64,000 nucleotides of DNA from Dehalococcoidales bacterium (GCA_034413595.1 DAOUMC010000019.1:581-64580), one strand, 5' to 3'. Shown: positions 16,892 to 63,166, counted from the first letter of the stretch. The notes: a model not told the origin generated them from the sequence alone. Numbers and translations are program-made.

Positions 16892-16920
16892 TTGAGTCCA
16901 CCAGCCCGATGAACTATACT
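16892..16920 (+). promoter_or_regulatory. Promoter TTGAGT-17-TATACT for the nurA operon
   Basis: The hexamers are at 16892-16897 and 16915-16920. The ATG follows 10 nt after the -10, with no SD. Confidence 0.45.
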
Positions 16921-16930
16921 ATCGGCAGAG

Positions 16931-18139
16931 ATGAGCCTGGACTTAAACAAGGTCGCCCCTCAGATTGACGACATGGCAGCCCGGCTAAAGGCAGGCGGCC
17001 AAAAACGGCAGCAACATCTCCTCAAAGCGCTGGGCATATTAAACGATGAGGCCATCAACCTTGACCACCTGAAGACTAAAATCGCCTCAGGCAAGACCAC
17101 CTGGCTGGTAGCCGGGCTGGTGGACAGCCTCAACCGGCACTATGAGGCACCACCACCCCCCGAAGAGTTCACCGTCATCGCCAGCGACGGCTCTCAAATT
17201 GATGTCGACCGCCACCAGCCCACCAGGTGCTACCTGATAAATATAGGCAGTGTTACCCTTAGCTATGGCACAAGACCAAGCGCCGCCCTTGATAGCTTCC
17301 CCAGTCTCTATTCCGGGGATGACGACCTGGTTATAGCGTCACCCGAGGGCGGGCGCGAGCTACCAGTGGAAGGCACGCTGCTGAACATCAAGCGCTGCGT
17401 TGAAGAGTGCCGCCACCTGACCAGTCTGGCAGACGGGCTGCCCCCGGACACCCCCGTTCTGGCACTGCTTGACGGCTCGCTAATTCTCTGGGGTCTGGCC
17501 AGCAAAGACTACCCGGAATTTGTCATCAAGGTGCTGCTGGACAGAGGTTTCATCCACTGTCTCGATGAAATAAAGAGGCTAAGCCAGGACAGAATAATCG
17601 CCCTGGCCAGCTACATCAGCTACCCACGCTCCACTGACGTCGTCAATACCCTACGGGTGGCCATCTGCCCCAATGATGTGGCCGACTGCGACCGCTACTG
17701 TGCCCATAACCCTTTGCGGGGACAGGAGTGTGACGCCGTAGCCGGCGTCCAGGACAGGGAGCTATTCTTCAACCTGCTAGCTGCCGGCGAAAGGTCGGCC
17801 CTGTTCATCAGCCAGTCGTCAATAGTCCAGAAACGCTACGGTGTTCACAGGGTCTATTTCTTCTACCTCAAAGTTGATGATGAAATAGCCAGGGTTGAGG
17901 TTCCCCAGTGGGTGGCACTGGATAAAAATCTGCTGGGCCTGGTTCACGCCCTGGTCCTGGACCAGTGCCGGCGGGGGCAGGGCTATCCGGTGGCGTTATC
18001 CGAGGCCCACGAACAGGCGGTAATAAGCTCTGCCGACCGTGACAACTTCCAGCAGCTTGTAGAGCAATGGCTAATGCAAGAGCACCTGCCCGTGGCGACC
18101 TCAGCCAAGAGCCGGAGCAAAAGGACGAGATGGATTTAG
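16931..18139 (+). CDS. nurA: NurA-domain nuclease
   Basis: FTVIASDGSQID and LALLDGSLILW, the two acidic DGS motifs typical of the NurA domain. About 400 aa. Confidence 0.7.
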   Translation: MSLDLNKVAPQIDDMAARLKAGGQKRQQHLLKALGILNDEAINLDHLKTKIASGKTTWLVAGLVDSLNRHYEAPPPPEEFTVIASDGSQIDVDRHQPTRCYLINIGSVTLSYGTRPSAALDSFPSLYSGDDDLVIASPEGGRELPVEGTLLNIKRCVEECRHLTSLADGLPPDTPVLALLDGSLILWGLASKDYPEFVIKVLLDRGFIHCLDEIKRLSQDRIIALASYISYPRSTDVVNTLRVAICPNDVADCDRYCAHNPLRGQECDAVAGVQDRELFFNLLAAGERSALFISQSSIVQKRYGVHRVYFFYLKVDDEIARVEVPQWVALDKNLLGLVHALVLDQCRRGQGYPVALSEAHEQAVISSADRDNFQQLVEQWLMQEHLPVATSAKSRSKRTRWI

Positions 18140-18149
18140 GAGGTGATCT

Positions 18150-18536
18150 TTGGAGAGCCGGAAACACCGCCTGGCAAAATCAATGAGATGGGTAGCACGG
18201 GTTATGGTGCTGGCTGCCGCCGGGCTCTTCCTGACCTTCCTCATTGGCGAAGCTCTCGGTGCCGGTCTGGACTTGGGTTCAGAGTCAATCACCACAGAAG
18301 GCATCTCGCTGATTGCGCTGGTAGGCATTGCCCTGATTGGCTGTGCTATATCCTGGTGGCGGGAGTGGCTGGCCGGCGTGCTGCTGGTTTTGGTTTCCAT
18401 CGGATTTGGCGTCCATATTGGTGTCTATGCCAGGAGCAACTACCTCCCGGCCTGGTTGATAGCCGGTCTGCCTTATCTTATCGCCGGGATGCTATTATTT
18501 ACCTCCCAGTGGCTGAGAGGAAGGCAGGCTAATTAA
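18150..18536 (+). CDS. 4-TM membrane protein of unknown function
   Basis: TTG start 6 nt after AGGAGG (18138-18143). Four hydrophobic helices. It was chosen over the overlapping 18143 frame, which has no TM or SD logic. Confidence 0.6.
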   Translation: MESRKHRLAKSMRWVARVMVLAAAGLFLTFLIGEALGAGLDLGSESITTEGISLIALVGIALIGCAISWWREWLAGVLLVLVSIGFGVHIGVYARSNYLPAWLIAGLPYLIAGMLLFTSQWLRGRQAN

Positions 18537-18607
18537 AATTATACAATCTGCTATTATTAGGTGGTAGAAGAGGTGGGTGTATAGTTTAAGGCAGGAAGGA
18601 GATCATT

Positions 18608-18769
18608 ATGTCACCGGAAGGGAAAGGTGGCGGTGCACCCGGCAGCTTCGCTGGTATCCTCTGGTTTATCGGCTGGCTGTTCACCATCGGCTTCGCCCAT
18701 CTGGTCTGGTGGAAAATCATACTCGGTATCGTGGTCTGGCCATTCTTCTTGGGCCAAGCCGTAGGGTAA
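18608..18769 (+). CDS. 53-aa two-TM membrane peptide (below the ORF-track cutoff)
   Basis: AAGGAG SD 6 nt before the ATG. Translation: MSPEGKGGGAPGSFAGILWFIGWLFTIGFAHLVWWKIILGIVVWPFFLGQAVG. Confidence 0.5.
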   Translation: MSPEGKGGGAPGSFAGILWFIGWLFTIGFAHLVWWKIILGIVVWPFFLGQAVG

Positions 18770-18815
18770 TAAGTTATCAGCCTCTTAGAGACAGACTGTA
18801 AAGGAGGTTAGACAA

Positions 18816-18884
18816 ATGGGCACTAAAGGCAGAAAGAACGTGAAGAAGCCCAAGCAGAAAAAAGACAAGAAGAAAAAAGGGTAA
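18816..18884 (+). CDS. 22-aa lysine-rich micro-ORF
   Basis: AAAGGAGG SD 8 nt upstream. Translation: MGTKGRKNVKKPKQKKDKKKKG, then TAA. Confidence 0.4.
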   Translation: MGTKGRKNVKKPKQKKDKKKKG

Positions 18885-18964
18885 AAGAATCAAACAGTAT
18901 GCTCTCCCAATCTTTTTGATGAGTCAAGGGGAGGTGACCCGGAACCCGCGGGTAGCAGTCAAAC

Positions 18965-19561
18965 ATGGTTGAATTATCAAAGAAAGTTGGCGAGGTCATA
19001 GAAGCCAGCACCACTGACTTTACCGCCCAGTGCTATGAGCTCTATCAGATTCCGCCGCTGGGCAGTCTGGTCAAGACCGGGGGCTCAGAGCTTGAGCTAT
19101 ACGGTGTGGTCTGTAGTGCCGCCACCGCCAGCCTTGAGCCCGGGCGCCGTCCCATAGCCCGGGGCAGGGACGAGACAAGCGAGGAGGCCATCTACAGGTC
19201 CAGTCCCCAGCTTGAAAGGCTGCTCAGGAGCGAGTTCGGCGCCCTGGTGGTCGGGCATAAGACAAACGACAGGATTTACCACTACCTGCCGCCCGAGCCG
19301 GCGCGCATCCACGGCTTCGTCTACCTCTGCCCGCCACAAGAGGTCAAAGATTTCAGCCAGTCCCTGGACTTCCTCAACCTGATGCTCAACGCCAGCCTGC
19401 CCATACCCAAGGACGAGCTTATCTCTGCCTGCCTGCGCCAGATGAGTCAGGTGCAGGAAGACAGCCGCCGCTTCCTGGTTACTGCCGGCAGAGAGCTGGC
19501 CGGCCGGCTCAGCGGCGATTTTGACCAGCTAAGAGCCATCCTGGAGAGGATGAGGCCATGA
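18965..19561 (+). CDS. 198-aa protein with a HerA-like N-terminal barrel pattern and no P-loop
   Basis: KVGEVIEASTTDFTAQCYE...LGSLVKTGGSELELYGVVCSAAT resembles the barrel at the HerA N-terminus next door. The stop overlaps the herA ATG (ATGA). Confidence 0.6.
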   Translation: MVELSKKVGEVIEASTTDFTAQCYELYQIPPLGSLVKTGGSELELYGVVCSAATASLEPGRRPIARGRDETSEEAIYRSSPQLERLLRSEFGALVVGHKTNDRIYHYLPPEPARIHGFVYLCPPQEVKDFSQSLDFLNLMLNASLPIPKDELISACLRQMSQVQEDSRRFLVTAGRELAGRLSGDFDQLRAILERMRP

Positions 19562-21165
19562 GTGAGGACAGGCTGGGCATGGTCGTCGCCGGTTCGCTCG
19601 CCAAGGGGGTTGAGGTCAGGCTGGACAGCGGAGCCTCGGTGGAGGATATGGCCGTCGGTCGCTACGTGACCATTGAAGGGCAAAAGCGGCGCTTCCTGGG
19701 CATGATAACCGATGTCAGCCTGGGAGCGACCGACCAGAGGCTGGCCAGCAGCCCGCCGGATGTCTCCGACCCCTTTATCGCCGAGGTTCTGGCCGGCACC
19801 AGCACCTACGGCCGGCTCCGGGTGGTGCCCTACCTCGCCATCGGCGGCGACGCCCCGAGCCTGCTCCAGGGCCCCCAGCCGGTAAAGACTGTCCCCAGCC
19901 ACTTTTCGGCGGTCAACATAGCCCAGGACAGTGATATTGAGCTTGTATTTGGCAAAGAGGACAAACAAAGGTTCTGGATTGGCAACCCTCTGGATATGGA
20001 GACCAAGCTGTGCCTCAACCTGCCGGAGCTGGCCAAGCGAAGCAACGGCATCTTCGGCAAGAGCGGCACCGGCAAGACCTTCCTCACCCGAATGCTGCTC
20101 ATCGGCATGTTGCAGAAGGGCGCCTGTGCTAACCTGGTCTTTGACATGCACAGCGAGTACGGCTGGGAAGGCTCAAGCGAGGGAGGGCGCAAGGTCAAGG
20201 CCTTAAAACAGCTCTTCCCGGCAAAGGTGGCCGTGTTCACCCTGGACGAGGAGAACGCCAAAAGGCGCAAGGTCAGCACCGACTGCGTGGTCAAAATCGG
20301 CTATGACGAGATAGAGCCAGAGGACATGGTTCTCCTGCGCCAGACGTTGAACCTCACCGAGCCGGCGGTGGAAGCCATCTACCAGATGCGGCGGAGGTTT
20401 GGCCAGGACTGGCTGCTCAACACTCTAGAGCTGGATGACTCTGAAGGGACCAGGGCGCTGCTGGATGAACTAAGCATCCACGAGAGCACCCTCCAGAACC
20501 TCAAGCGCGGGCTGAACACCATCAGGCGGCTTCCCTTTATAGACAGGCAGACCGTCCAGAAAGTGGTTCCCCAGATTCTCAGCTACCTTGACCGTGGAAT
20601 AAACGTTGTCCTGGAGTTCGGCAGATACGCCGATATCACCGCCTACATCCTGATGGCCAACCTGCTCACCCGGCGCATCTATGACCGGTACCGGGAAAGG
20701 ACAGAAAGGGCGATGGCTGAAGAAACGGCACCTCCCACCCCGCTGGTCATCACCATTGAGGAAGCCCACAAGTTTTTAAACCCGGAGGTATCGGGGCAGA
20801 CCATCTTCGGCACCATCGCCCGCGAGATGCGCAAATACAATGTCACCCTGCTGGTTATTGACCAGCGCCCCAGCGGCATTGATGAGGAGGTCATGTCCCA
20901 GCTGGGCACAAAGATAACCTGCCTGCTGGACAATGAGCGTGACATGGACAGCGTGCTGGCCGGTGTCTCCGGCAGGAGCGAACTCAAATCGGTGCTGGCC
21001 AAGCTGGCGGCCAAGCAGCAGGCGCTCATCTTCGGGCATGCCGTGCCCATGCCGGTGGCCTTCCAGCCCCGGGAGTATGGCTCCGCCGAATCCTACAAAT
21101 GTTTTATGTCAACCGAGGAAGACGACCGGCAAGCTGAAAAAGACATTGAAGAGTTGTGGCAATAG
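19558..21165 (+). CDS. herA: HerA-type (DUF87, FtsK/HerA superfamily) hexameric ATPase/helicase
   Basis: N-terminal barrel, Walker A GKSGTGKT, Walker B LVITIEEAHKF, and LLVIDQRPSGIDEEVMSQLGTKI. Confidence 0.85.
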   Translation: MSEDRLGMVVAGSLAKGVEVRLDSGASVEDMAVGRYVTIEGQKRRFLGMITDVSLGATDQRLASSPPDVSDPFIAEVLAGTSTYGRLRVVPYLAIGGDAPSLLQGPQPVKTVPSHFSAVNIAQDSDIELVFGKEDKQRFWIGNPLDMETKLCLNLPELAKRSNGIFGKSGTGKTFLTRMLLIGMLQKGACANLVFDMHSEYGWEGSSEGGRKVKALKQLFPAKVAVFTLDEENAKRRKVSTDCVVKIGYDEIEPEDMVLLRQTLNLTEPAVEAIYQMRRRFGQDWLLNTLELDDSEGTRALLDELSIHESTLQNLKRGLNTIRRLPFIDRQTVQKVVPQILSYLDRGINVVLEFGRYADITAYILMANLLTRRIYDRYRERTERAMAEETAPPTPLVITIEEAHKFLNPEVSGQTIFGTIAREMRKYNVTLLVIDQRPSGIDEEVMSQLGTKITCLLDNERDMDSVLAGVSGRSELKSVLAKLAAKQQALIFGHAVPMPVAFQPREYGSAESYKCFMSTEEDDRQAEKDIEELWQ

Positions 21166-21234: not shown

Positions 21235-21264
21235 TTGCCAACCGGATAACGGCATTGCTATAAT
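21235..21264 (+). promoter_or_regulatory. tRNA-Ala promoter TTGCCA-18-TATAAT
   Basis: The hexamers are at 21235-21240 and 21259-21264. The -10 ends 8 nt before the mature tRNA 5' end. Confidence 0.5.
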
Positions 21265-21272
21265 GTTCTCCC

Positions 21273-21345
21273 GGGGCCGTAGTTCAGTTGGGAGAACGCT
21301 TGATTTGCATTCAAGAGGTCAGGAGTTCGAATCTCCTCGGCTCCA
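21273..21345 (+). tRNA. tRNA-Ala (anticodon TGC), CCA not encoded
   Basis: Manually folded cloverleaf: acceptor GGGGCCG/CGGCTCC with G3:U70, anticodon loop TTTGCAT, T-loop TTCGAAT, discriminator A, followed by CGT. Confidence 0.93.
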
Positions 21346-21422
21346 CGTTCAGTTTTTCAACCTAAGGTGCCAGTAGGTGGTACCGCTATGTTCTCTTTCC
21401 CAGCAAGTAAAGGGGCCTGTGA

Positions 21423-21971
21423 ATGATAGGAAAAATGAGAGCTTCCATCTTAGCCTTGTTTATAATTCTCGCCCTAATCTCGATTTTCTTTCTGATTGCT
21501 TCCCTTATTTCAAAAATACTGAATCTCCCTTCATCTCTAAATCTGCCCGCTGCACTGCGAGTTGTGGGAGCAGTGTTGATGGGGGTTGGGATTGCGCTTA
21601 TACTTTGGCTTCTCAAGTATAGGAGACCTGTAACCATGCTAGTGTCAACATATTTTACATTCCGGAAGCTATTCACGAGAACTCCAATAGAGGAGATATC
21701 AGGGCGAGCAGAGCCATTAATCATAAGTGGCCCACAAAAGTATGTGAGACATCCGCTCTACCTTGGAGCCATAATCGTCTTTTTGGGCTGGGGCCTCCTG
21801 ACTGGAACAACGTCGAATTTGACCGCGACTTTGTTCATACTACTTTGGTTTCGGTTAGTACAGATTCCATTTGAAGAAAAGGAGATGCGTGCTCTCTTCA
21901 AAGATCAGTACGTGAAATATATGCATGATACACCGATGTTGATCCCATTTACGAAACAAAAGAGTCGTTGA
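21423..21971 (+). CDS. Isoprenylcysteine carboxyl / phospholipid methyltransferase-family membrane protein
   Basis: VRHPLYLGAIIVFLGWGL motif and multiple TM helices. Confidence 0.7.
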   Translation: MIGKMRASILALFIILALISIFFLIASLISKILNLPSSLNLPAALRVVGAVLMGVGIALILWLLKYRRPVTMLVSTYFTFRKLFTRTPIEEISGRAEPLIISGPQKYVRHPLYLGAIIVFLGWGLLTGTTSNLTATLFILLWFRLVQIPFEEKEMRALFKDQYVKYMHDTPMLIPFTKQKSR

Positions 21972-22410
21972 AATTTCTATGCTTAAATGCTAAGGCTGAA
22001 GACCAAGTCAAAGTCCTTGCCAGTATTACTTATTGATACCTCAGCCCCACCAAAGGAGACGATAACTAGAACTCTCCCTCGCGGAAGAGTCTTTTCAATA
22101 ACCTTCCCAAATAGTTTTATCACACCAGTACACTGTTACAGAGCAAATTCCTCAGTGCCAATTTTGTCCAATAGCCTTTATAGTGAAGCTGTCGCGTTTA
22201 TGCCAGATGCAGCGGACTTTACAGGAACTTGACAAGGACTAAAGTGGGTTGTAGTGTTTGCTAACACTACATGTAACATAAACGGCTTAGTCAACCCCGG
22301 GCCTCTGGAAAAGTGTCCGGCCTTGGGAAGGGAATATTTCCTACCACTCTAAAGGAAATGCTGGCAGCCAAAGAGGTATTTCAGGAAGAGGACGACACGG
22401 GACAGCTATC

Positions 22411-22815
22411 ATGAACAATATAGCCGTCTTTATTCTCATTCCCATCACAGGTTATCTAGGCCTTTGGATATTAGGAAGCGCACTTTTTATCGTCTACTTC
22501 AAGATATACAATGTCTCACTGGATTTGAAACATACCGTTGCTATGATTCGAAAGGTGCCCCCGGCACTGGCGATAATAACCGTCCCTCTCTGTAGTTTCC
22601 TGTCATTTTTCACAGCAACAAGGACATTCGGGGGAGCACTGGACGCTTCACAGTTCCTCCGGGTTGGTATAATATCCCTTTTGGCAACGATAGGATTAGA
22701 TTTGTTAATAACGGTAGTTGGTGAAAAGATAAACATCTTAACCTTCCCGCTAAATCTGATGTATTTGTTCGCCTGGTTAGTCATCGTCCCGTCTGTTATC
22801 CTGGCCGGTCACTGA
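22411..22815 (+). CDS. 4-TM membrane protein, unknown function
   Basis: Hydrophobicity pattern only. Confidence 0.45.
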   Translation: MNNIAVFILIPITGYLGLWILGSALFIVYFKIYNVSLDLKHTVAMIRKVPPALAIITVPLCSFLSFFTATRTFGGALDASQFLRVGIISLLATIGLDLLITVVGEKINILTFPLNLMYLFAWLVIVPSVILAGH

Positions 22816-22866
22816 AAATAGGAGAAGCAGCTTGCCTAGCACTCAAGCAATCGGGGTGGATAAAAA

Positions 22867-23289
22867 TTGAGCGCCATTGTAACGACTGCTAGCAGCATCA
22901 AAGCCCTGGTTATTGCCAGAAGTCTGGGCAGAAATGGGGTCAGGGTGACCACAGGAGACAAACAAAGGCACGCCCTGGCTTCCCTTTCCAGGTACTCATC
23001 CGGTTCCTTTATCTACCCCCCTCCCCAGCAATCGCCCCGGGAGTTCATAGCCAGATTGACCGAATTTGCCAAGCAGAATAGGCACGATGTCCTGATACCA
23101 ACTCACTCCGAAGACACCTATATCATCGCCGAGCACAGAGCCGAGCTGGAGCCCTTTATAAAAGTGCCCCTTCACGACTATTCGGCCATCATGAAAGCCA
23201 ACGACAAGGGATATGTGATGCAAGTAGCCGGCAAGCTGGGAATCCCCACCCCCAAGACAGTCTTCATTCAGAACTTTGATGAGCATTAA
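22867..23289 (+). pseudogene. ATP-grasp enzyme fragment (pre-ATP-grasp domain only, about 140 aa)
   Basis: The N-terminus is typical of ATP-grasp ligases (VIARSLGRNGVRV...KANDKGYVMQVAGKLGIPTPKT). The frame stops where the ATP-binding domain should begin. Its 3' end overlaps the convergent gene by 26 nt. Confidence 0.5.
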
Positions 23290-24232
23290 GAGACACGAGA
23301 TAGAAAGAAGCCAAGAAGGCGGTCTTGTCATCGCTCTGTCTCTCATAGACGGAGTATAAACCGAGAGGCACCAAGGCAAAGAGAAAGGGGAAAATGGCTT
23401 TAAATACCCATGTCCCTTCAATGCCAGACAGTGAAGAATAGGTGACAGGCAGGATGGTAACGCTAAGGACACTGTTGCTCTGGTTGGGAAGAGTCCAGTC
23501 CCAGAATAGATTTTGATTGGTCAAACCGTAGACGTAGTACTCAACTTTGATATCAGCCCCGGTAAGATAAGGAGAGATTAACGAGAGGTGATAGAAAAGG
23601 GAAAGGGCAATACTGAATACCGCCAGGGGGTATAGCCGCCTAGGAATGAAGACATTAAAGACAATGAGGACTACGACCAGCGCCACAAGGGCAATCAATA
23701 TCATGAGAACGATGTTGGAGTGGTAATAATTGACAAAATGAGTCCCGATAATGCTGAGCAGGGGAAGCAGGAGCAGAAAAACGGTCGGGGGCGACAGGAT
23801 TTCGCCCACATTCAGGTAATCCGGCGCTGAAAAACCCTTATCCCGGTAGTAGCTCCAGGCAGTTAGAGCGGCGAGGCTTGTCACTATAGTTGTGACCAGA
23901 GACAGTGTTCCCAGCGGAGATGACCACCCAAAGTAAGGGGAGATGACATTTATCAGGAAGCCGGCCAGCATCAGGAAGACGACACTCAAACCAACACAAT
24001 AAAGGATATTCTCGACCGGATTCAGCCGGTGTATCTTTAGCAGTCTGAGGATGATAAATCCAGGGATAAAGGCCAGATAGATAAAACCCACGGCCTCTCT
24101 AAAAACCGGTAAATCCAAACCACCGAGGTAAAACCCGTTGACCAGAAGCATCAGCGAGTGGGCGACTATCATCAGGACAATGTATTCCCTGATTCCCCAG
24201 TCGTTTATCTTGAAGGGGTTAAGTATTCGCAT
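23264..24232 (-). CDS. Polytopic membrane protein (DUF2206-like, possible glycan polymerase/oligosaccharyl-transferase-like), possibly C-terminally truncated
   Basis: About 9 TM helices. It lies in an operon with glycosyltransferase and epimerase genes. The start may be ATG 24230-24232 or 24301. Confidence 0.45.
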   Translation of the reverse strand: MRILNPFKINDWGIREYIVLMIVAHSLMLLVNGFYLGGLDLPVFREAVGFIYLAFIPGFIILRLLKIHRLNPVENILYCVGLSVVFLMLAGFLINVISPYFGWSSPLGTLSLVTTIVTSLAALTAWSYYRDKGFSAPDYLNVGEILSPPTVFLLLLPLLSIIGTHFVNYYHSNIVLMILIALVALVVVLIVFNVFIPRRLYPLAVFSIALSLFYHLSLISPYLTGADIKVEYYVYGLTNQNLFWDWTLPNQSNSVLSVTILPVTYSSLSGIEGTWVFKAIFPFLFALVPLGLYSVYERQSDDKTAFLASFYLVSLNAHQSSE

Positions 24233-24242
24233 CACCCCATCC

Positions 24243-25337
24243 TCATTCGCTTTCTCCCAGAACTTTCCGGTAAACCTGAATGGTCTTTTCACTAATCCCA
24301 TCCCACGAGAAATCCCTCTTTAGCTTCTGATAGCCCTTTTCGCCCATTTCCTCTCTTAAACCGTCATCTTTTAACAATTCAACCACCGCACCCGCCAGCG
24401 CCACTTCGTCCCCCGCGGGTACGATATACCCCGTTTTACCATCTTCTACAGCCTCAGGCAGACTGCCCACTCCGGTCACCACCACCGGTTTTTTAAAGGC
24501 ATAAGCCTGACCTACCACCCCGCTCTGAGACGCCTCAATGTAAGGCAGAACCACCAGAGAGCACTTCTGGAACAATTCCACCGCCTCCTTGAAGCCGACA
24601 TAGTGGTTATACACGATGAAACTCTCCCTGTTAACCATCAAACGCTCATACTTTTTGAAGTTCTCCCCTCTGCCAGCGATGACCATCTTCGCTCCCGGCA
24701 CCTCTCTGATAATTAAAGGTTCAGCCCTAATCAGATACTCCAGCCCCTTATACGGGCGAATCCGGCCGAAAAAGAGAACCACTTTCCCTTCTTCTTTGAG
24801 CCCTTTTACGTATCTTTTAAGCGGAGCGACATTGTGCTCACCGATGGGTATTACTTTTATCCTGCCGGCCGGGTAGCTGCCCGCCAGGAGCTCTTTTATC
24901 TTTTGACCGTGGACAAAGATATGCTCGGAATATCTCCTGGCCAGAAATAAAAGGAGCCTTGACCTGAGGTAATCTTCTCCTAGGTGGGGCCTAACATCGT
25001 GAAGAGTGGTCACCACATGATACCTTCTTAATCTTAGCCAGGGAAGAGTCAGCGAGAACCAGGGATGCCCGACTTGAAGGTGAACAATGTCTGGTTTAAA
25101 GGTAGATAGTTGCTTCAAAATATTCAGCACCAACAGCAAGTTTGCCGGGGAATAAAGCCGCGGCTGCTTATAGAAATATCTTTTGACCTGCCTCTCTATG
25201 GAGTCCAGATGCTCTTCTATACGTTGGTCGGGCAGCAGGAGAAAAGTATCTATTCCCCTCTGGGCCAGGGCATTGGCTAGTTGTATAGTATAGTCATTAA
25301 AGCCAAAGCCAAGCAGGGCAACCCTGATCGGGCGCAA
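24243..25337 (-). CDS. Glycosyltransferase family 4 (GT-B, GT1 clan)
   Basis: C-terminal E-x7-E region (LPYIEASQSGVVGQAYAFKKPVVVTGVGSLPEAVEDGKTGY). Confidence 0.85.
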   Translation of the reverse strand: MRPIRVALLGFGFNDYTIQLANALAQRGIDTFLLLPDQRIEEHLDSIERQVKRYFYKQPRLYSPANLLLVLNILKQLSTFKPDIVHLQVGHPWFSLTLPWLRLRRYHVVTTLHDVRPHLGEDYLRSRLLLFLARRYSEHIFVHGQKIKELLAGSYPAGRIKVIPIGEHNVAPLKRYVKGLKEEGKVVLFFGRIRPYKGLEYLIRAEPLIIREVPGAKMVIAGRGENFKKYERLMVNRESFIVYNHYVGFKEAVELFQKCSLVVLPYIEASQSGVVGQAYAFKKPVVVTGVGSLPEAVEDGKTGYIVPAGDEVALAGAVVELLKDDGLREEMGEKGYQKLKRDFSWDGISEKTIQVYRKVLGESE

Positions 25338-25373
25338 ACTGACTCTACCTCCTATGACTATTGTTGTATCAGG

Positions 25374-25568
25374 TTAAATATCTAGCTCGGCAGTCTGCTC
25401 TGGCGGCAACAGGTTGGGGATGCCATTCGTGATTGGATAGTGATGACCACATCTGGGGCAATACAGAGAACCACTGATTATCTCCTGTCCCTTCTCCTCT
25501 TCAATAGTGAGTTCAAGCTCCTGCTTGCACACCGGGCACACAAGTATTGCCATCATTTCCTTCTTCAT
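25374..25568 (-). CDS. Trm112-family zinc-ribbon protein
   Basis: LVCPVCKQ...YCPRCGHHYPITNGIPNLL. The start is set at the ATG that forms an ATGA overlap with the epimerase stop. Confidence 0.75.
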   Translation of the reverse strand: MKKEMMAILVCPVCKQELELTIEEEKGQEIISGSLYCPRCGHHYPITNGIPNLLPPEQTAELDI

Positions 25569-26512
25569 GGCTTGCTTCCTGTGAGATGCCATCCTATCGT
25601 CTCCCTCAGCCCGGCTTCCAGACTGTACCCCGGTTCATAACCAAAGGCCTTAGCCCTGGAAATATCAGCCAGGCTGTGCCTTATATCACCCGGTCTTGGC
25701 GCCTCATAAACCAGGGCAAGGTTGCTGCCCATAAGCTCAGCGATAAGCTTGGCCAGCCGGTTAATAGATATACCTTTGCCTCCGCCGATGTTGAAGATAC
25801 CGGTGGCACCGCTCTCGGCGGCCAATATATTGGCTTCCGCAGCGTCTCTGGCAAAGGTAAAATCCCTTGTCTGTTCTCCATCACCATAGATAACCGGCGG
25901 GCTTCCCTGAGAAATCTGGCTGATGAACCTGGGAATGACGGCAGCATATTCGGACTCTGAGTCCTGCCTGGGGCCATAAACATTGAAATATCTCAGGCAA
26001 ACAGCGGGCAGCCCGTAGACCCTGCGAAACACCCGGCAGTAGTACTCTCCGGCCAGCTTGGTTGTGGCATAAGGCGATTGCGGGCCCGGCAGCACATCCT
26101 CTTTCTGAGGCAAAACAGGACTATCGCCGTAGACCGACGATGACGAGGCATAGACCACTTTACTGACCCCACAATCCCTGGCCGCCAGAAGAACGTTAAG
26201 CGTCCCGGTGACATTTACCTCGTGATAGGCTTTCGGGTTATCTATGCTGAGGGGAACACCGGGGAGAGCCGCCAGGTGAAAGACACAACAAGTACCCTGG
26301 AAAACACTTTTGAGCAGAGGGAGGTCAACCACACTCCCCTGGATGAACTCCGCGCTCCCCTTGCCCAGCAGAGTCTCAATATTGGCCATTTTGCCACTGG
26401 ACAGGTCATCAAGGATGACAACCCGATAGCCCCGGCTGGCCAGCAGTTCCGCCAGATGCGAGCCAATGAAGCCGGCGCCGCCGGTAACGGCCACCTTCTT
26501 ATTATTTCTCAC
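25565..26512 (-). CDS. NAD-dependent sugar-nucleotide epimerase/dehydratase (SDR)
   Basis: VTGGAGFIGSHL Rossmann motif and catalytic YATTK. Confidence 0.88.
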   Translation of the reverse strand: MRNNKKVAVTGGAGFIGSHLAELLASRGYRVVILDDLSSGKMANIETLLGKGSAEFIQGSVVDLPLLKSVFQGTCCVFHLAALPGVPLSIDNPKAYHEVNVTGTLNVLLAARDCGVSKVVYASSSSVYGDSPVLPQKEDVLPGPQSPYATTKLAGEYYCRVFRRVYGLPAVCLRYFNVYGPRQDSESEYAAVIPRFISQISQGSPPVIYGDGEQTRDFTFARDAAEANILAAESGATGIFNIGGGKGISINRLAKLIAELMGSNLALVYEAPRPGDIRHSLADISRAKAFGYEPGYSLEAGLRETIGWHLTGSKP

Positions 26513-26769
26513 AGCGCATCACCGATATTCAATTTCCTTGTCGCCTAATTATAATCATCTGGTAGACAATTGACAATATTACTGTCCTTTAAGTGTCATA
26601 TGTCCAGTATATCGTCCTGTAAAATTTCTAAAAATTAATAACCTAACACTATCACAATCCATCACGCTAATTCCAGTGATGTCTTTTCATCAATATTATT
26701 TATCTTGACAAAAAGAAATACTTATGATAATCTATTCATTGAATAAACAAAGCGGAGGAGCCTTTAAAA

Positions 26770-27870
26770 ATGAGACCAGGGCGAATTCTAAAACGGTCAG
26801 CCGGAAAATGGCAACCCATCATCCTGCTTCTGGCTGCCTTGCTCATGCTTGCTATCCTGCCGGCGTGTCAGGGGAAGGCAAATAATTATCGCTCTACCGA
26901 AGAGGTCACAGCCAAGGAGAAGCAAGGGGTGGTGACCTTTGACATTACCATAGACACGCCGGAGAACGCCGGGAAGGTCAGCTTGTGGCTTCCCTACGTG
27001 ACCTCTAACGACTACCAGACAATTGAAGATGTCAGCGTAGAGGGCAATTTTGACTACAGCGGTGTTTACCGGGAAGCGGAACACGGCATCATCAGCCTCT
27101 ACGCCGAGTGGGACGAGCCTAAGGGGGATGCCAGACTGACCTACTCCTTCAAGATAACAAGGAAAGAAATCATAATGAAGAATTTCCCCAAGGAAGAGGG
27201 GCCGATTCCGGTCGAAATAGAGCAGTACCTGCTGCCGACGAGCCTGGGGCCGACCACCGGCGACGTCAAGGACGTTGCCGTTAAGGTCACCAAGGGACAA
27301 AAGACCATCCTGGGCAAGGCGATCGCCATCTATGATTACATCGTGGAAGAGGGTGAGCGCAATCCGGATATAAAGGGCTGTGGCATAGGCGATGTCGAAG
27401 CTCTGCTCCAAGACCTCTCAGGCAAGTGCAGCGACATTTCCTCGGTCTTTGTCGCCATGGCCAAGAGTGTCGGTGTTCCGGCGAGAGAGATTCTCGGCAT
27501 CAGAATGGCCCAGGAGGGGGATATAACAGGCGCTTATCACTGCCGGGCTGAATTCTATCTCCCGGGTTACGGCTGGGTGCCGGTTGACCCGTCAGACGTC
27601 CTCAAGTTCATGCTGACGCAGGGGTGCAGCCTTGCCGACCCGAAAACAGCCGAGGCCCGCCAGTATTTCTTCGGGGCCCAGACCGAGACCTACATTGACT
27701 TTTACCCGGGGAGAGACGTCATCCTGAGCCCGGCACAGGGCGGAGACCCGCTCAACTACTTTATGTACCCCTATGCCGAGGTCAACGGCAAACACCTGCC
27801 TTTTACCACCCCGGGACACCCGGTCAGCCAGGAAGGCCTGAAATACACGGTCACCTTCAGAGGGCTATAG
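26770..27870 (+). CDS. Transglutaminase-like cysteine protease-fold lipoprotein
   Basis: Lipobox LPAC. GKCSDISSVFVAMAKSVGVPAR...YHCRAEFYLPGYGWVPVDPSD forms a Cys-His-Asp core. Confidence 0.8.
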   Translation: MRPGRILKRSAGKWQPIILLLAALLMLAILPACQGKANNYRSTEEVTAKEKQGVVTFDITIDTPENAGKVSLWLPYVTSNDYQTIEDVSVEGNFDYSGVYREAEHGIISLYAEWDEPKGDARLTYSFKITRKEIIMKNFPKEEGPIPVEIEQYLLPTSLGPTTGDVKDVAVKVTKGQKTILGKAIAIYDYIVEEGERNPDIKGCGIGDVEALLQDLSGKCSDISSVFVAMAKSVGVPAREILGIRMAQEGDITGAYHCRAEFYLPGYGWVPVDPSDVLKFMLTQGCSLADPKTAEARQYFFGAQTETYIDFYPGRDVILSPAQGGDPLNYFMYPYAEVNGKHLPFTTPGHPVSQEGLKYTVTFRGL

Positions 27871-60013: not shown

Positions 60014-60090
60014 TGGTGGGCCATTCTGGACTCGAACCAGAGACCCCAGTCTTATCAGGACTGTGCTCTAACCAACTGAGCTAATGGCCC
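60014..60090 (-). tRNA. tRNA-Ile (anticodon GAT), CCA encoded
   Basis: Manually folded: acceptor GGGCCAT/ATGGCCC, anticodon loop CTGATAA, T-loop TTCGAGT, ending ACCA. Confidence 0.93.
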
Positions 60091-61375: not shown

Positions 61376-63166
61376 TTATAAACCCCCCCTCTCCTTGAAA
61401 GGAGAGGGGGAAGGAATAATCCGAGCAGTATCGGATCCTTTGCCGATTGATAGCTTGAGCACCTGTGTCGGAATCGACCCTTTGATCTCAATGCGGCCGG
61501 GATAGGCGAACACCTTGATATCAAATAGTTGCATGATACCCCTGATGTTTCTATTTATGTCGTAGGCAGGCCGCTCCCAATCAGGCCCGTAAACGTTGAT
61601 GCTGGGACGAATGCCGGGTATGCAGATGGGCTCCGAACCATGCTCCCAATCGATGACGCAGGGATAGATGCTGTTACATGCGGTGGATCCCTGGTACATA
61701 AAATGTTCAGTAGGGGCCGGTCGGCCGATAGCCATCTTACCATCCGAATCGGCGAAGTAGGCGTTGAAGCCCAAGGGCACAAACTGTTCCTCGGTCATGG
61801 CAAAGATACCCAGGTCGGAGATGACGACGTATCCTTGGCTCAGTATGTTCTTTATTCTGGAAATGTGCTCTTCCAGTGCCTCCATCTGGTAAAGCCGAAA
61901 TGGGTCGATGTTATGGCGGCATCTTAGCAGTGCCGCCTCCTGCTTTCTCAGTTGGGCGAGTTTAGACCTGTAGGTGTCCTCGCCGACGGTGCCATCGGCG
62001 AAGGCCATCCCCAGACGCTCTTTTCTGTTTCTGATTACCTCCAGTTTGCTGTCTATCGACAGGGTCTCGGCCCCGATGCGGGACTTTTCCTCTTCCAGCT
62101 CGGTCAGAGCTTTGTTGATGGACTCGAGAAGCGCCTTCTGGTCCCGAATGACAGTCCTGACTCTCTTCCAGACTGCCGCCTCCAGCCAGTCCGCCCTGAT
62201 ATAGGGTAGGTCGCAGCGCCCTCTGCTGCCGGGATACAGCCGGGGCTGTACCCGTCCGCGGCAGGCATAGTAGCGGTAATCGTCTCTCTTCTTCTGCTGG
62301 CATTTCAGGACGTGGCCGCACCGGCCGCAGAAACACATCCCCTGTAGGGCCCAGCCCTTGGGGTCGGCCAGTACGCTGCGGGCCTTTTCACGTCTCTCCT
62401 GCGCCAGTCGGAAGGTAGCCTCATCAATGAGAGGCGGCATGGCTACGCCGATCCGGTGCTGCCCTGTATATCCGGGGCGGATCAATATCGCGTGAACCAG
62501 GCTGTACCGCCAAGGGGCCCCGCCGCGAGTAGCCAGACCGTACCCGTTCAGGGTAGCCACGATTGAATTAATACCCAGTTTCTTGTTGATGTAGAGGTCG
62601 TAGATGCTCCGAACCACCTGAGCCTCGTCCGGTATCACCTCCCATTTCCGCTCTCCGGCAAGCCAGCGGTAGCCGTACGGGGTACGTCCACCCGGCCAGT
62701 TGCCGCCGCCGATAAGATATCTGCGGCTGTCCCTGACCCTCTCTCCTATCCTCTCCCTCTCAAACTCGGCAATGACCCCCATAATCTGTACAGCAAACCT
62801 GCCGTAGGGCGTCGACGTGTCCAGCCCCTCCTGGGTGGAGACAAACTTGATGCCCAGCTGCTCCAAATCATGGAGGTGGTTTAGCAGCAGCCTGAGGTCA
62901 CGGAAGAAGCGGTCCAATTTGCACACCGCGATGACGTTGAAGCTCTTCTGTCTGGCGTCGAGCAGCATACGCCTGAATGCCGGCCTGTCGTCGGTTCCGC
63001 CGCTATAGCCGCCGTCGATGTATTCATCGGCTACCTCCCAGGCTTGGCTCCTGGCGTAGGCCTTAAGGGCGGCTACCTGGGCTTCGATGGAGACGCCCTC
63101 GGTCGCCTGCTCCTGAGAGCTGACCCGGGCGTAAAGCGCCACCATTAGTCGGGGTTCTGTTCTCAT
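61376..63166 (-). mobile_element. Large serine recombinase (resolvase catalytic domain + recombinase domain + zinc ribbon + long C-terminal extension)
   Basis: VALYARVSSQEQ catalytic Ser, DGGYSGGTDDRPAF, VCKLDRFFRD and C..C...C..C zinc ribbon (CFCGRCGH...YYACRG). AAGGAGG SD. Confidence 0.88.
61385..61410. repeat. 10-bp perfect palindrome CCCCCTCTCC-ttgaaa-GGAGAGGGGG inside the last codons of the recombinase ORF
   Basis: Seen directly. Confidence 0.7.

Follow-up and report, generated by a model that had tools for sequence, protein, structure and literature searches.

We analysed a 64,000-nucleotide (nt) stretch of DNA from a Dehalococcoidales bacterium (GCA_034413595.1, DAOUMC010000019.1:581-64580), hereafter the window, and characterized the locus at positions 16892-21165, which encodes a NurA-domain nuclease, a HerA ATPase and, immediately upstream of HerA, a 198-residue barrel protein (p198). 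The locus is probably a chromosomal, vertically inherited module of three proteins, NurA, HerA and the barrel protein, that processes DNA double-strand-break ends. The NurA-HerA pair is known from other organisms; the new elements are a conserved, ATPase-less HAS-barrel protein as the third member, which is widespread in Dehalococcoidia, and an unannotated micro-protein family encoded beside it.

The locus contains six open reading frames (ORFs):

16931-18139, plus strand, nurA (NurA, 402 aa)
18150-18536, plus strand, DUF7670 gene (128 aa, TTG start)
18608-18769, plus strand, 53-aa ORF
18816-18884, plus strand, 22-aa Lys-rich micro-ORF (MGTKGRKNVKKPKQKKDKKKKG)
18965-19561, plus strand, 198-aa barrel gene (p198)
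19558-21165, plus strand, herA (HerA, 535 aa)

According to the ORF listing, the intergenic gaps from nurA to the p198 gene are, in order, 10, 71, 46 and 80 nt, and the p198 gene and herA share an ATGA overlap. The 128-aa ORF has a perfect AGGAGG Shine-Dalgarno (SD) site 6 nt upstream of its TTG, and the 22-aa ORF has one 8 nt upstream of its ATG. Hydropathy analysis predicts ~4 hydrophobic spans for the 128-aa protein and ~2 for the 53-aa peptide; NurA, p198 and HerA have none. These features agree with the initial annotation of this DNA, which had described six same-strand ORFs with the same coordinates, gaps and overlap, the SD site before the 128-aa ORF, a protein of four transmembrane spans and a peptide of two. 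The ratio of nonsynonymous to synonymous substitution rates (dN/dS) is 0.09-0.40 across the five ORFs long enough for an estimate (nurA, 0.13-0.28; DUF7670 gene, about 0.36-0.40; 53-aa ORF, 0.09-0.22; p198 gene, 0.12-0.28; herA, 0.09-0.19), values that are rough as dS is near saturation. By this measure the constraint on p198 is similar to that on NurA and HerA. All six ORFs are conserved in other genomes and, as judged from this conservation, are real genes under purifying selection, more than chance ORFs.

About 150 related loci were compared in total, and the window proteins were mapped onto them. They comprise 24 genome loci collected with the 198-aa protein, 120 metagenome loci collected with the DNA pattern of the micro-ORF, and the loci of distant p198 family members; the closest ones are all from Dehalococcoidales metagenome-assembled genomes. 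The p198 gene is followed by herA on the same strand in 54/54 informative loci, and in 44 of these the two genes join within about -9 to +20 nt. Upstream of this pair, nurA is found on the same strand in 29 of the 33 loci with enough sequence, at a distance from the p198 gene of 65 to 2,811 nt. SAR202 bacteria carry a compact operon of nurA, a 43-nt gap, a 201-residue barrel gene (p201) and herA, and an Armatimonadota genome has the same nurA-barrel-herA trio, with no membrane gene inside either of them. Only nurA, the p198 gene and herA travel together, and the conserved core is three soluble proteins, not six.

The spacer between nurA and the p198 gene is an insertion hotspot that holds different genes in different genomes. 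They encode DUF7670, a ~280-aa lipoprotein-like protein, a beta-helix/NosD-like secreted protein, a LOG-family protein (confirmed by Pfam), 23S-rRNA-IVP, PNPOx-like and AIG2/GGACT proteins, and small membrane proteins. Insertions between the p198 gene and herA are found in a few genomes and consist of transglutaminase-like, GNAT-like or NfeD-like genes. In one locus with no upstream nurA (L020, 320-4000), the barrel-herA pair directly follows type IV pilus/type II secretion-like genes. We note that the GNAT-like and NfeD-like inserts, as well as the ATPase, platform protein and prepilin-like protein of the latter locus, were named from sequence only.

The initial annotation had suggested that the locus may encode a membrane-associated machine for DNA end processing or translocation. 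If all six ORFs belonged to it, DUF7670 and the 53-aa and Lys-rich peptides would tether or regulate NurA-HerA. The ORFs are indeed same-strand, tightly spaced, preceded by good SD sites and all real genes; the spacer of many relatives also holds some membrane or secreted protein, and HerA is among the FtsK/VirB4-related pumps, with a weak match to the CedD model (4e-17). The proposal had been staked on the synteny of the intervening ORFs, and the neighbourhood survey shows both membrane ORFs to be non-syntenic. DUF7670 is encoded in 3/24 genome loci and 0/120 metagenome loci, and the 53-aa ORF is found in 4 loci besides the window (80-84% identity in L010, L097 and L134). The 128-aa protein matches DUF7670 (PF24709) with E=1.4e-11 and 45.2 bits (29-bit cut-off), a rare family for which we found 39 homologues; p198, by comparison, has at least 3,431 and NurA at least 6,192. 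Elsewhere in Dehalococcoidales (L155, L156, L157-L162), the DUF7670 gene follows mutS, recO, a Mrp/ParA-like gene, DUF2148 or HGD-D. The 53-aa peptide has no family match in Pfam, NCBIfam or PADLOC. In addition, genes of diverse function, soluble enzymes among them, occupy the spacer, no membrane gene is part of the operons of SAR202 and Armatimonadota, and the core proteins have no hydrophobic spans. A six-part membrane machine is therefore very improbable; DUF7670 and the 53-aa peptide are encoded by passengers in a variable spacer, unrelated to the system and not parts of it. As a side observation, the DUF7670 gene is found on the 3' side of unrelated genes of the same strand and behaves as a roaming passenger would. 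A tie of DUF7670 to DNA repair, considered for its positions after nurA, mutS and recO, was dropped, as the three further contexts are unrelated to repair.

The third core protein, p198, belongs to a family of at least 3,431 homologues that form 798 clusters at 50% identity, nearly all of them free-standing proteins of ~200 aa. The members that carry a taxonomic name, which are few, come from Dehalococcoidia, SAR202, other Chloroflexota and Armatimonadota. No model of the full-length protein exists in Pfam, NCBIfam or PADLOC, and the window sequence had no match in the PDB, NCBIfam or PADLOC and none in Pfam at E<=1. With these searches blank, p198 could be identified because of a family-wide Pfam scan and a fold search. 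The HAS-barrel (PF09378), which forms the N-terminal crown of HerA and of F1-type ATPase subunits, was detected by Pfam in 35/72 diverse family members, the best at 2e-9; a distant member (L149) also has a weak precomputed HAS-barrel hit. An AlphaFold2 (AF2) model built from the 72-member alignment has a predicted local distance difference test score (pLDDT) of 96.8 and a predicted template modelling score of 0.90. In this model a beta-barrel (residues 7-121) is followed by five helices (residues 124-196). When the model was searched against the PDB with Foldseek, the top 50 matches were all HerA chains (probability 1.00, best E=4.5e-7, 127-166 columns aligned), and these chains come from archaeal and Deinococcus repair complexes as well as from defence complexes. 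Aligned by hhalign, residues 3-135 of the p198 family are collinear with residues 2-135 of the HerA family profile (E=0.007, probability 5%), and the comparison of the p198 family with a single HerA sequence was uninformative. Taken together, the model and the searches indicate that p198 is a motor-less, ATPase-less paralogue of the HerA N-terminal HAS-barrel, with a C-terminal five-helix domain. This agrees with the initial annotation, which had called the 198-aa protein an ATPase-less barrel.

One further feature distinguishes p198 from HerA:

19139-19165, plus strand, Arg-rich loop PGRRPIARG of p198 (family consensus DPGRRPxARG, R61 nearly invariant)

This segment has no counterpart in the aligned part of HerA and is present as a loop in the model.

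We considered whether the p198 ORF could instead be a decaying fragment of a duplicated herA, that is, a pseudogene remnant without function. p198 matches only the N-terminal domain of HerA and is encoded directly upstream of an intact herA, as such a fragment would be. A remnant would not be expected to form 798 clusters at 50% identity with a constant length of ~200 aa, to keep invariant residues and a conserved C-terminal domain of its own, to show a dN/dS of 0.12-0.28, to be found from Dehalococcoidales to Armatimonadota, or to give a model of pLDDT 96.8. The fragment explanation is effectively refuted by this conservation, and we leave it almost no probability.

HerA, a translocase of the FtsK/HerA superfamily, was assigned in a profile search of all six ORFs, with matches to DUF87 (PF01935, E=2.1e-26) and the HAS-barrel (PF09378, E=2.7e-8). 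The two ATPase motifs read in the initial annotation are present, and both are invariant in the family alignment:

20056-20079, plus strand, HerA Walker A GKSGTGKT (aa 167-174)
20746-20775, plus strand, HerA Walker B region VITIEEAHKF (aa 397-406)

The closest solved relatives by sequence are 8wiv (2.8e-21) and 4d2i (4.5e-15). The best scores against the NCBIfam HerA equivalogs are 52-74 bits, compared with cut-offs of 800-970 bits. As it falls far under every one of these cut-offs, the window HerA belongs to a distinct, uncurated HerA clade. It also does not match Deinococcus radiodurans HerA (phmmer, 1e-3).

NurA matches the Pfam NurA model (PF09376) over positions 2-254 of 254 with E=5.4e-27 and 95.3 bits (21-bit cut-off), so that both enzyme assignments of the initial annotation are supported by family profiles. 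We found at least 6,192 homologues, and PF09376 is present in all 120 of the relatives listed, which NCBI names 'DNA double-strand break repair nuclease NurA'. The residues invariant within the clade are D86 (DGS), E159, D181 (DGS), D344 and H360, as read from the alignment of the clade. The Pfam match begins at residue 81 and is preceded by a conserved N-terminal helical extension of ~75 aa (window 16931-17160). The barrel protein may contact NurA at this extension.

The locus lies in a core-genome setting. By sequence, the window corresponds to contig CAZOKD010000002.1 of assembly GCA_964580355.1. Its surroundings in the window include FtsZ, FtsA, MraW, PriA, SecDF and CCA-adding enzyme genes, among others, and its GC content is 0.577, compared with 0.551 for the whole window. 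Across Dehalococcoidales the locus is flanked by CDF-HDAC-LysE, and SecDF is found upstream even in SAR202. Searches of 50,697 phage records, of 72,556 plasmids and of IMG/VR returned no p198 relatives; the viral-contig scan used a single sequence and detects close relatives only. The conserved flanks and the absence from these phage, plasmid and viral collections suggest that the locus is not mobile.

A link to known repair genes was found in a Chloroflexota lineage that lacks NurA. In this lineage (L154, 6001-12353), the barrel-herA pair adjoins sbcD (TIGR00619, 153 bits, 78-bit cut-off) and a gene for an SbcC/Rad50-type ATPase, which matches TIGR00618 with 5.7e-81, under that model's own cut-off, and Rad50 models down to 6e-41. 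A similar neighbourhood with a Metallophos gene nearby is found in L149 (7001-14600), where the sbcDC link is probable. The arrangement can be seen as a bacterial echo of the archaeal herA-mre11-rad50(-nurA) cluster. Both the identity of the partners, NurA and HerA, and the sbcDC adjacency in the lineage without NurA favour classical double-strand-break end processing as the function of the module.

Several observations weigh against this assignment. The window NurA matched no solved NurA, either by sequence or by family profile against the PDB, and its AF2 model, built from a shallow alignment of 64-71% identical sequences, has a pLDDT of 41, so the NurA fold is taken from the Pfam hidden Markov model. 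The sequence similarity between p198 and the HerA N-terminus is weak, and because of this their paralogy is argued mainly from the fold. Among the window ORFs of at least 280 aa, there is no Mre11, Rad50 or SbcCD. Four loci have no nurA in reach upstream of the p198-herA pair, and in one locus (L153, 6001-6651) a distant 216-aa barrel homologue has no adjacent herA and is followed by a DksA/TraR zinc-finger gene and mreB, the only exception to the barrel-herA pairing that we have seen. Finally, the nearest solved relative of the window HerA, 8wiv, is a Paenibacillus SIR2-HerA defence protein, and the best matches of HerA in both NCBIfam (HerA_antiphage) and PADLOC are anti-phage HerA models, those in PADLOC reaching 6.7e-30.

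The last of these points would fit an anti-phage system of HerA plus effector, with NurA acting as nuclease effector and the barrel protein as a sensor or accessory factor, by analogy to Sir2-HerA and DUF4297-HerA. In line with this, the best Foldseek matches of p198 include HerA chains of DUF4297-HerA complexes, and a tRNA gene and a variable spacer adjoin the locus. We consider a defence function quite unlikely. In NCBIfam, the anti-phage models reach 74 and 52 bits where 800 and 850 are required, scores that do not exceed those of the repair HerA models, and neither NurA nor p198 has a PADLOC match. The locus keeps its place in the genome throughout Dehalococcoidales and in part into SAR202, the GC content is typical of the window, and the p198 family is absent from the phage, plasmid and viral collections searched. 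The core genes are under strong purifying selection with a distribution unlike that of patchy defence islands, and in another lineage the barrel-herA pair is linked to sbcDC. End processing thus remains the preferred function.

Comparison with characterized systems shows what the locus shares with them and where it differs. The archaeal HerA-NurA end-resection complex (Sulfolobus, Pyrococcus, Thermococcus; PDB 4d2i, 9x1l-9x1p) is encoded together with Mre11-Rad50. Like it, the window locus combines, on the same strand and in one locus, a NurA-domain nuclease with a HerA that has the HAS-barrel, Walker A and Walker B; the barrel protein folds like archaeal HerA N-termini, and a related Chloroflexota lineage has the herA pair next to sbcD/mre11 and sbcC/rad50 homologues. 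Unlike it, the window locus encodes a third conserved protein, an ATPase-less HAS-barrel translationally coupled to herA, and we know of no report of such a protein for the archaeal system. Further differences are that mre11/rad50 are missing among the window ORFs of at least 280 aa, that the window NurA is too divergent to match archaeal NurA structures by sequence, and that an insertion-prone spacer separates nurA from herA. In Deinococcus radiodurans and Thermus thermophilus (PDB 7wrw, 7f6d), NurA and HerA are encoded by two adjacent genes and form a NurA2-HerA6 complex with no third subunit. The window locus is likewise a bacterial chromosomal nuclease-translocase pair of the kind implicated in end resection, whereas its HerA is of a different clade and has the extra barrel protein.

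The Sir2-HerA (Nezha) and DUF4297-HerA systems consist of a HerA hexamer and an effector that docks on its HAS-barrel face, an architecture predicted for the window proteins as well. Their HerA proteins are the closest solved relatives of the window HerA by sequence, and their structures are top matches of the barrel protein. In contrast, no Sir2 or DUF4297 gene is present among the six ORFs, the curated anti-phage models score far under their cut-offs, and the window locus is conserved, lies in the core genome and contains a gene whose family is absent from the mobile-element collections searched. Compared with the HAS-barrel as a domain, p198 has the same fold and is distinct in being free-standing, with its own conserved five-helix C-terminal domain and the Arg-rich loop. 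Several points of the initial annotation thus hold, namely the lack of mre11/rad50/sbcCD (among the window ORFs of at least 280 aa), a composition like that of the surrounding core genome, the distinction from described Sir2-HerA and DUF4297-HerA systems, and a non-canonical arrangement, the last owing to the conserved third protein. Its claim that the locus differs from the classical resection module is weakened further by the barrel-herA pair beside sbcD and sbcC/rad50 in the NurA-less Chloroflexota. No description of the NurA-barrel-HerA trio was found in the literature searched, which did not cover the FtsK-HerA comparison of Iyer et al. 2004.

In published structures, the ring of HerA HAS-barrels is the docking surface of NurA, and the joint activity of NurA and HerA in archaea and Deinococcus is ATP-driven end resection (PMC9960219). 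By analogy, the window HerA would act as a hexamer that threads duplex DNA through its pore, using ATP, and delivers it to a NurA dimer docked on the HAS-barrel face, where NurA would degrade or resect the end. The barrel paralogue would be made in step with HerA via the ATGA overlap. It may assemble with HerA at or beside the HAS-barrel face, a ring or collar being the most likely form, and may in this position adapt or gate the docking of the very divergent NurA. The data establish what the genes are, how the barrel protein folds, how often the genes are linked, that the membrane ORFs are passengers and that the micro-ORF is coding; from these we infer end-resection activity, the formation of a complex and a function of p198 as adaptor or gate.

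The main rival to the adaptor or gate role keeps the same repair module and assigns p198 a regulator or decoy role. As a negative regulator or assembly chaperone, p198 would mimic the NurA-docking surface and cap HerA or sequester NurA until damage occurs. Such a role would fit a protein that has no catalytic domain and reproduces only the HAS-barrel, the surface bound by NurA in solved complexes, and the conserved Arg-rich loop and unique helical tail could make a different contact. p198 is also retained beside herA in loci without an adjacent nurA (L003, L020, L149, L154). On the other hand, p198 and herA are tightly coupled in translation in most loci, which speaks for co-assembly in fixed stoichiometry and not for titration, and we regard the regulator role as unlikely. 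A more far-reaching and rather unlikely version of the adaptor or gate role would make the barrel protein an obligate third subunit that forms a second ring on HerA. The resulting three-tier NurA-barrel-HerA machine would differ in nuclease docking and in the gating of DNA entry from any solved HerA-NurA complex, and the Lys-rich peptide encoded in the spacer would represent a new class of abundant nucleic-acid-binding or ribosome-associated micro-protein in Dehalococcoidales that also acts there.

In archaeal repair, HerA-NurA is the model for how a ring translocase supplies a nuclease with DNA, and bacterial immune effectors also use HerA rings as platforms. To our knowledge, the partner docks on the HAS-barrel face of HerA in every solved case. 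A free-standing version of this docking domain is encoded beside herA in Dehalococcoidia, among them the abundant marine SAR202, and in some other Chloroflexota and Armatimonadota, which suggests that HerA machines have a layer of assembly or control not described so far. p198 is a defined, highly foldable 198-aa target for structural work, and the locus offers a concrete candidate for a double-strand-break end-processing pathway in organisms that are hard to culture.

The Lys-rich micro-ORF upstream of the p198 gene adds a conserved micro-protein family that has been overlooked by gene callers. The pattern MG[TS]KGRKN[VI]KKPK, followed by a variable Lys-rich tail, was found in 14 of the ~20 Dehalococcoidales loci with a visible spacer among those collected with p198. 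These copies are always on the herA strand and have an AGGAGG-type SD site, and the DNA upstream of them is not conserved. The metagenome scan yielded 124 distinct DNA versions that encode 108 peptides of 14-29 aa, with an SD-like site before 118 of the 124. Third codon positions are free to vary at most codons, with AGA (111/124) and CCC (114/124) strongly preferred, and the peptide tails vary in K, Q, E and A. Of ~98 informative copies, 82 lie in the herA locus and 16 elsewhere, a share that is inflated as the metagenome loci were chosen by a pattern taken from herA-linked copies. Among the 82, the p198 gene is visibly downstream in 63 (median distance 227 nt), and 19 more are in a nurA/LOG context. 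The other sites are between folK and queD (L054, L074, L092, L142), before a 2'-5' RNA ligase/ligT gene (L068, L119, L136, L141), before thyX (L069) and after mutM (L081, L121), with these neighbours named from their sequences without profile confirmation. These features indicate that the micro-ORF is a true gene whose micro-protein is translated, and that it belongs to a Dehalococcoidales family with multiple copies, usually, and not exclusively, located upstream of the barrel gene.

In two loci, tandem, near-identical copies of the micro-ORF flank an inserted gene for a beta-helix/NosD-like secreted protein (L007, 4122-4199 and 5183-5260; L011, 1168-1245 and 2224-2301), which suggests that insertions into the nurA-p198 spacer occur at or beside the micro-ORF. 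The micro-ORF is absent from the deeper-branching Dehalococcoidia, SAR202, Armatimonadota and other Chloroflexota loci examined. This absence outside a Dehalococcoidales subclade indicates that the micro-ORF was added within that clade and is no ancestral subunit. The matching public record of the window does not list it as a gene, and it is of a type that gene callers skip. The micro-peptide had no match in Pfam, NCBIfam, the PDB (including ribosomes) or the literature. It may resemble tiny ribosomal proteins. Our best guess is that it is a small basic peptide that binds nucleic acid or associates with the ribosome, rather than a subunit of the NurA-barrel-HerA module. The spacer between the micro-ORF and the p198 gene folds as RNA no better than shuffled sequences (z=-0.67), and Rfam at gathering threshold returned only two tRNAs in the window and no RNA element that would explain the spacers.

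Promoter-like sites and a tRNA gene lie at the ends of the locus:

16892-16920, plus strand, promoter-like TTGAGT-17-TATACT (9/12 consensus matches), in the 142-nt divergent spacer between lysE (minus strand) and nurA
21235-21264, plus strand, strong, near-consensus promoter-like site of tRNA-Ala(TGC), TTGCCA-18-TATAAT, from the promoter scan
21273-21346, plus strand, tRNA-Ala(TGC), the downstream boundary of the locus

There are 7 sites of the kind seen at 16892-16920 in 6.5 kb, compared with 3.8 +/- 2.0 in shuffled sequences, which we do not count as enrichment. Given this count and its 9/12 match, the promoter-like site at 16892-16920 is no evidence for a single transcript.

On the 3' side of tRNA-Ala, ~6 kb of DNA (window 21400-27000) has a lower GC content of 0.46-0.50 and carries membrane, glycosyltransferase and epimerase genes. 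An integrated island at tRNA-Ala was considered and dropped, as the 3' end of this tRNA is not repeated anywhere in the window. Near the far end of the window, a large serine recombinase of 596 aa (Resolvase, Recombinase and Zn_ribbon_recom domains) is encoded at 61376-63166 on the minus strand. It lies ~1.3 kb from tRNA-Ile(GAT) (60014-60090) and could mark the edge of an integrated element.

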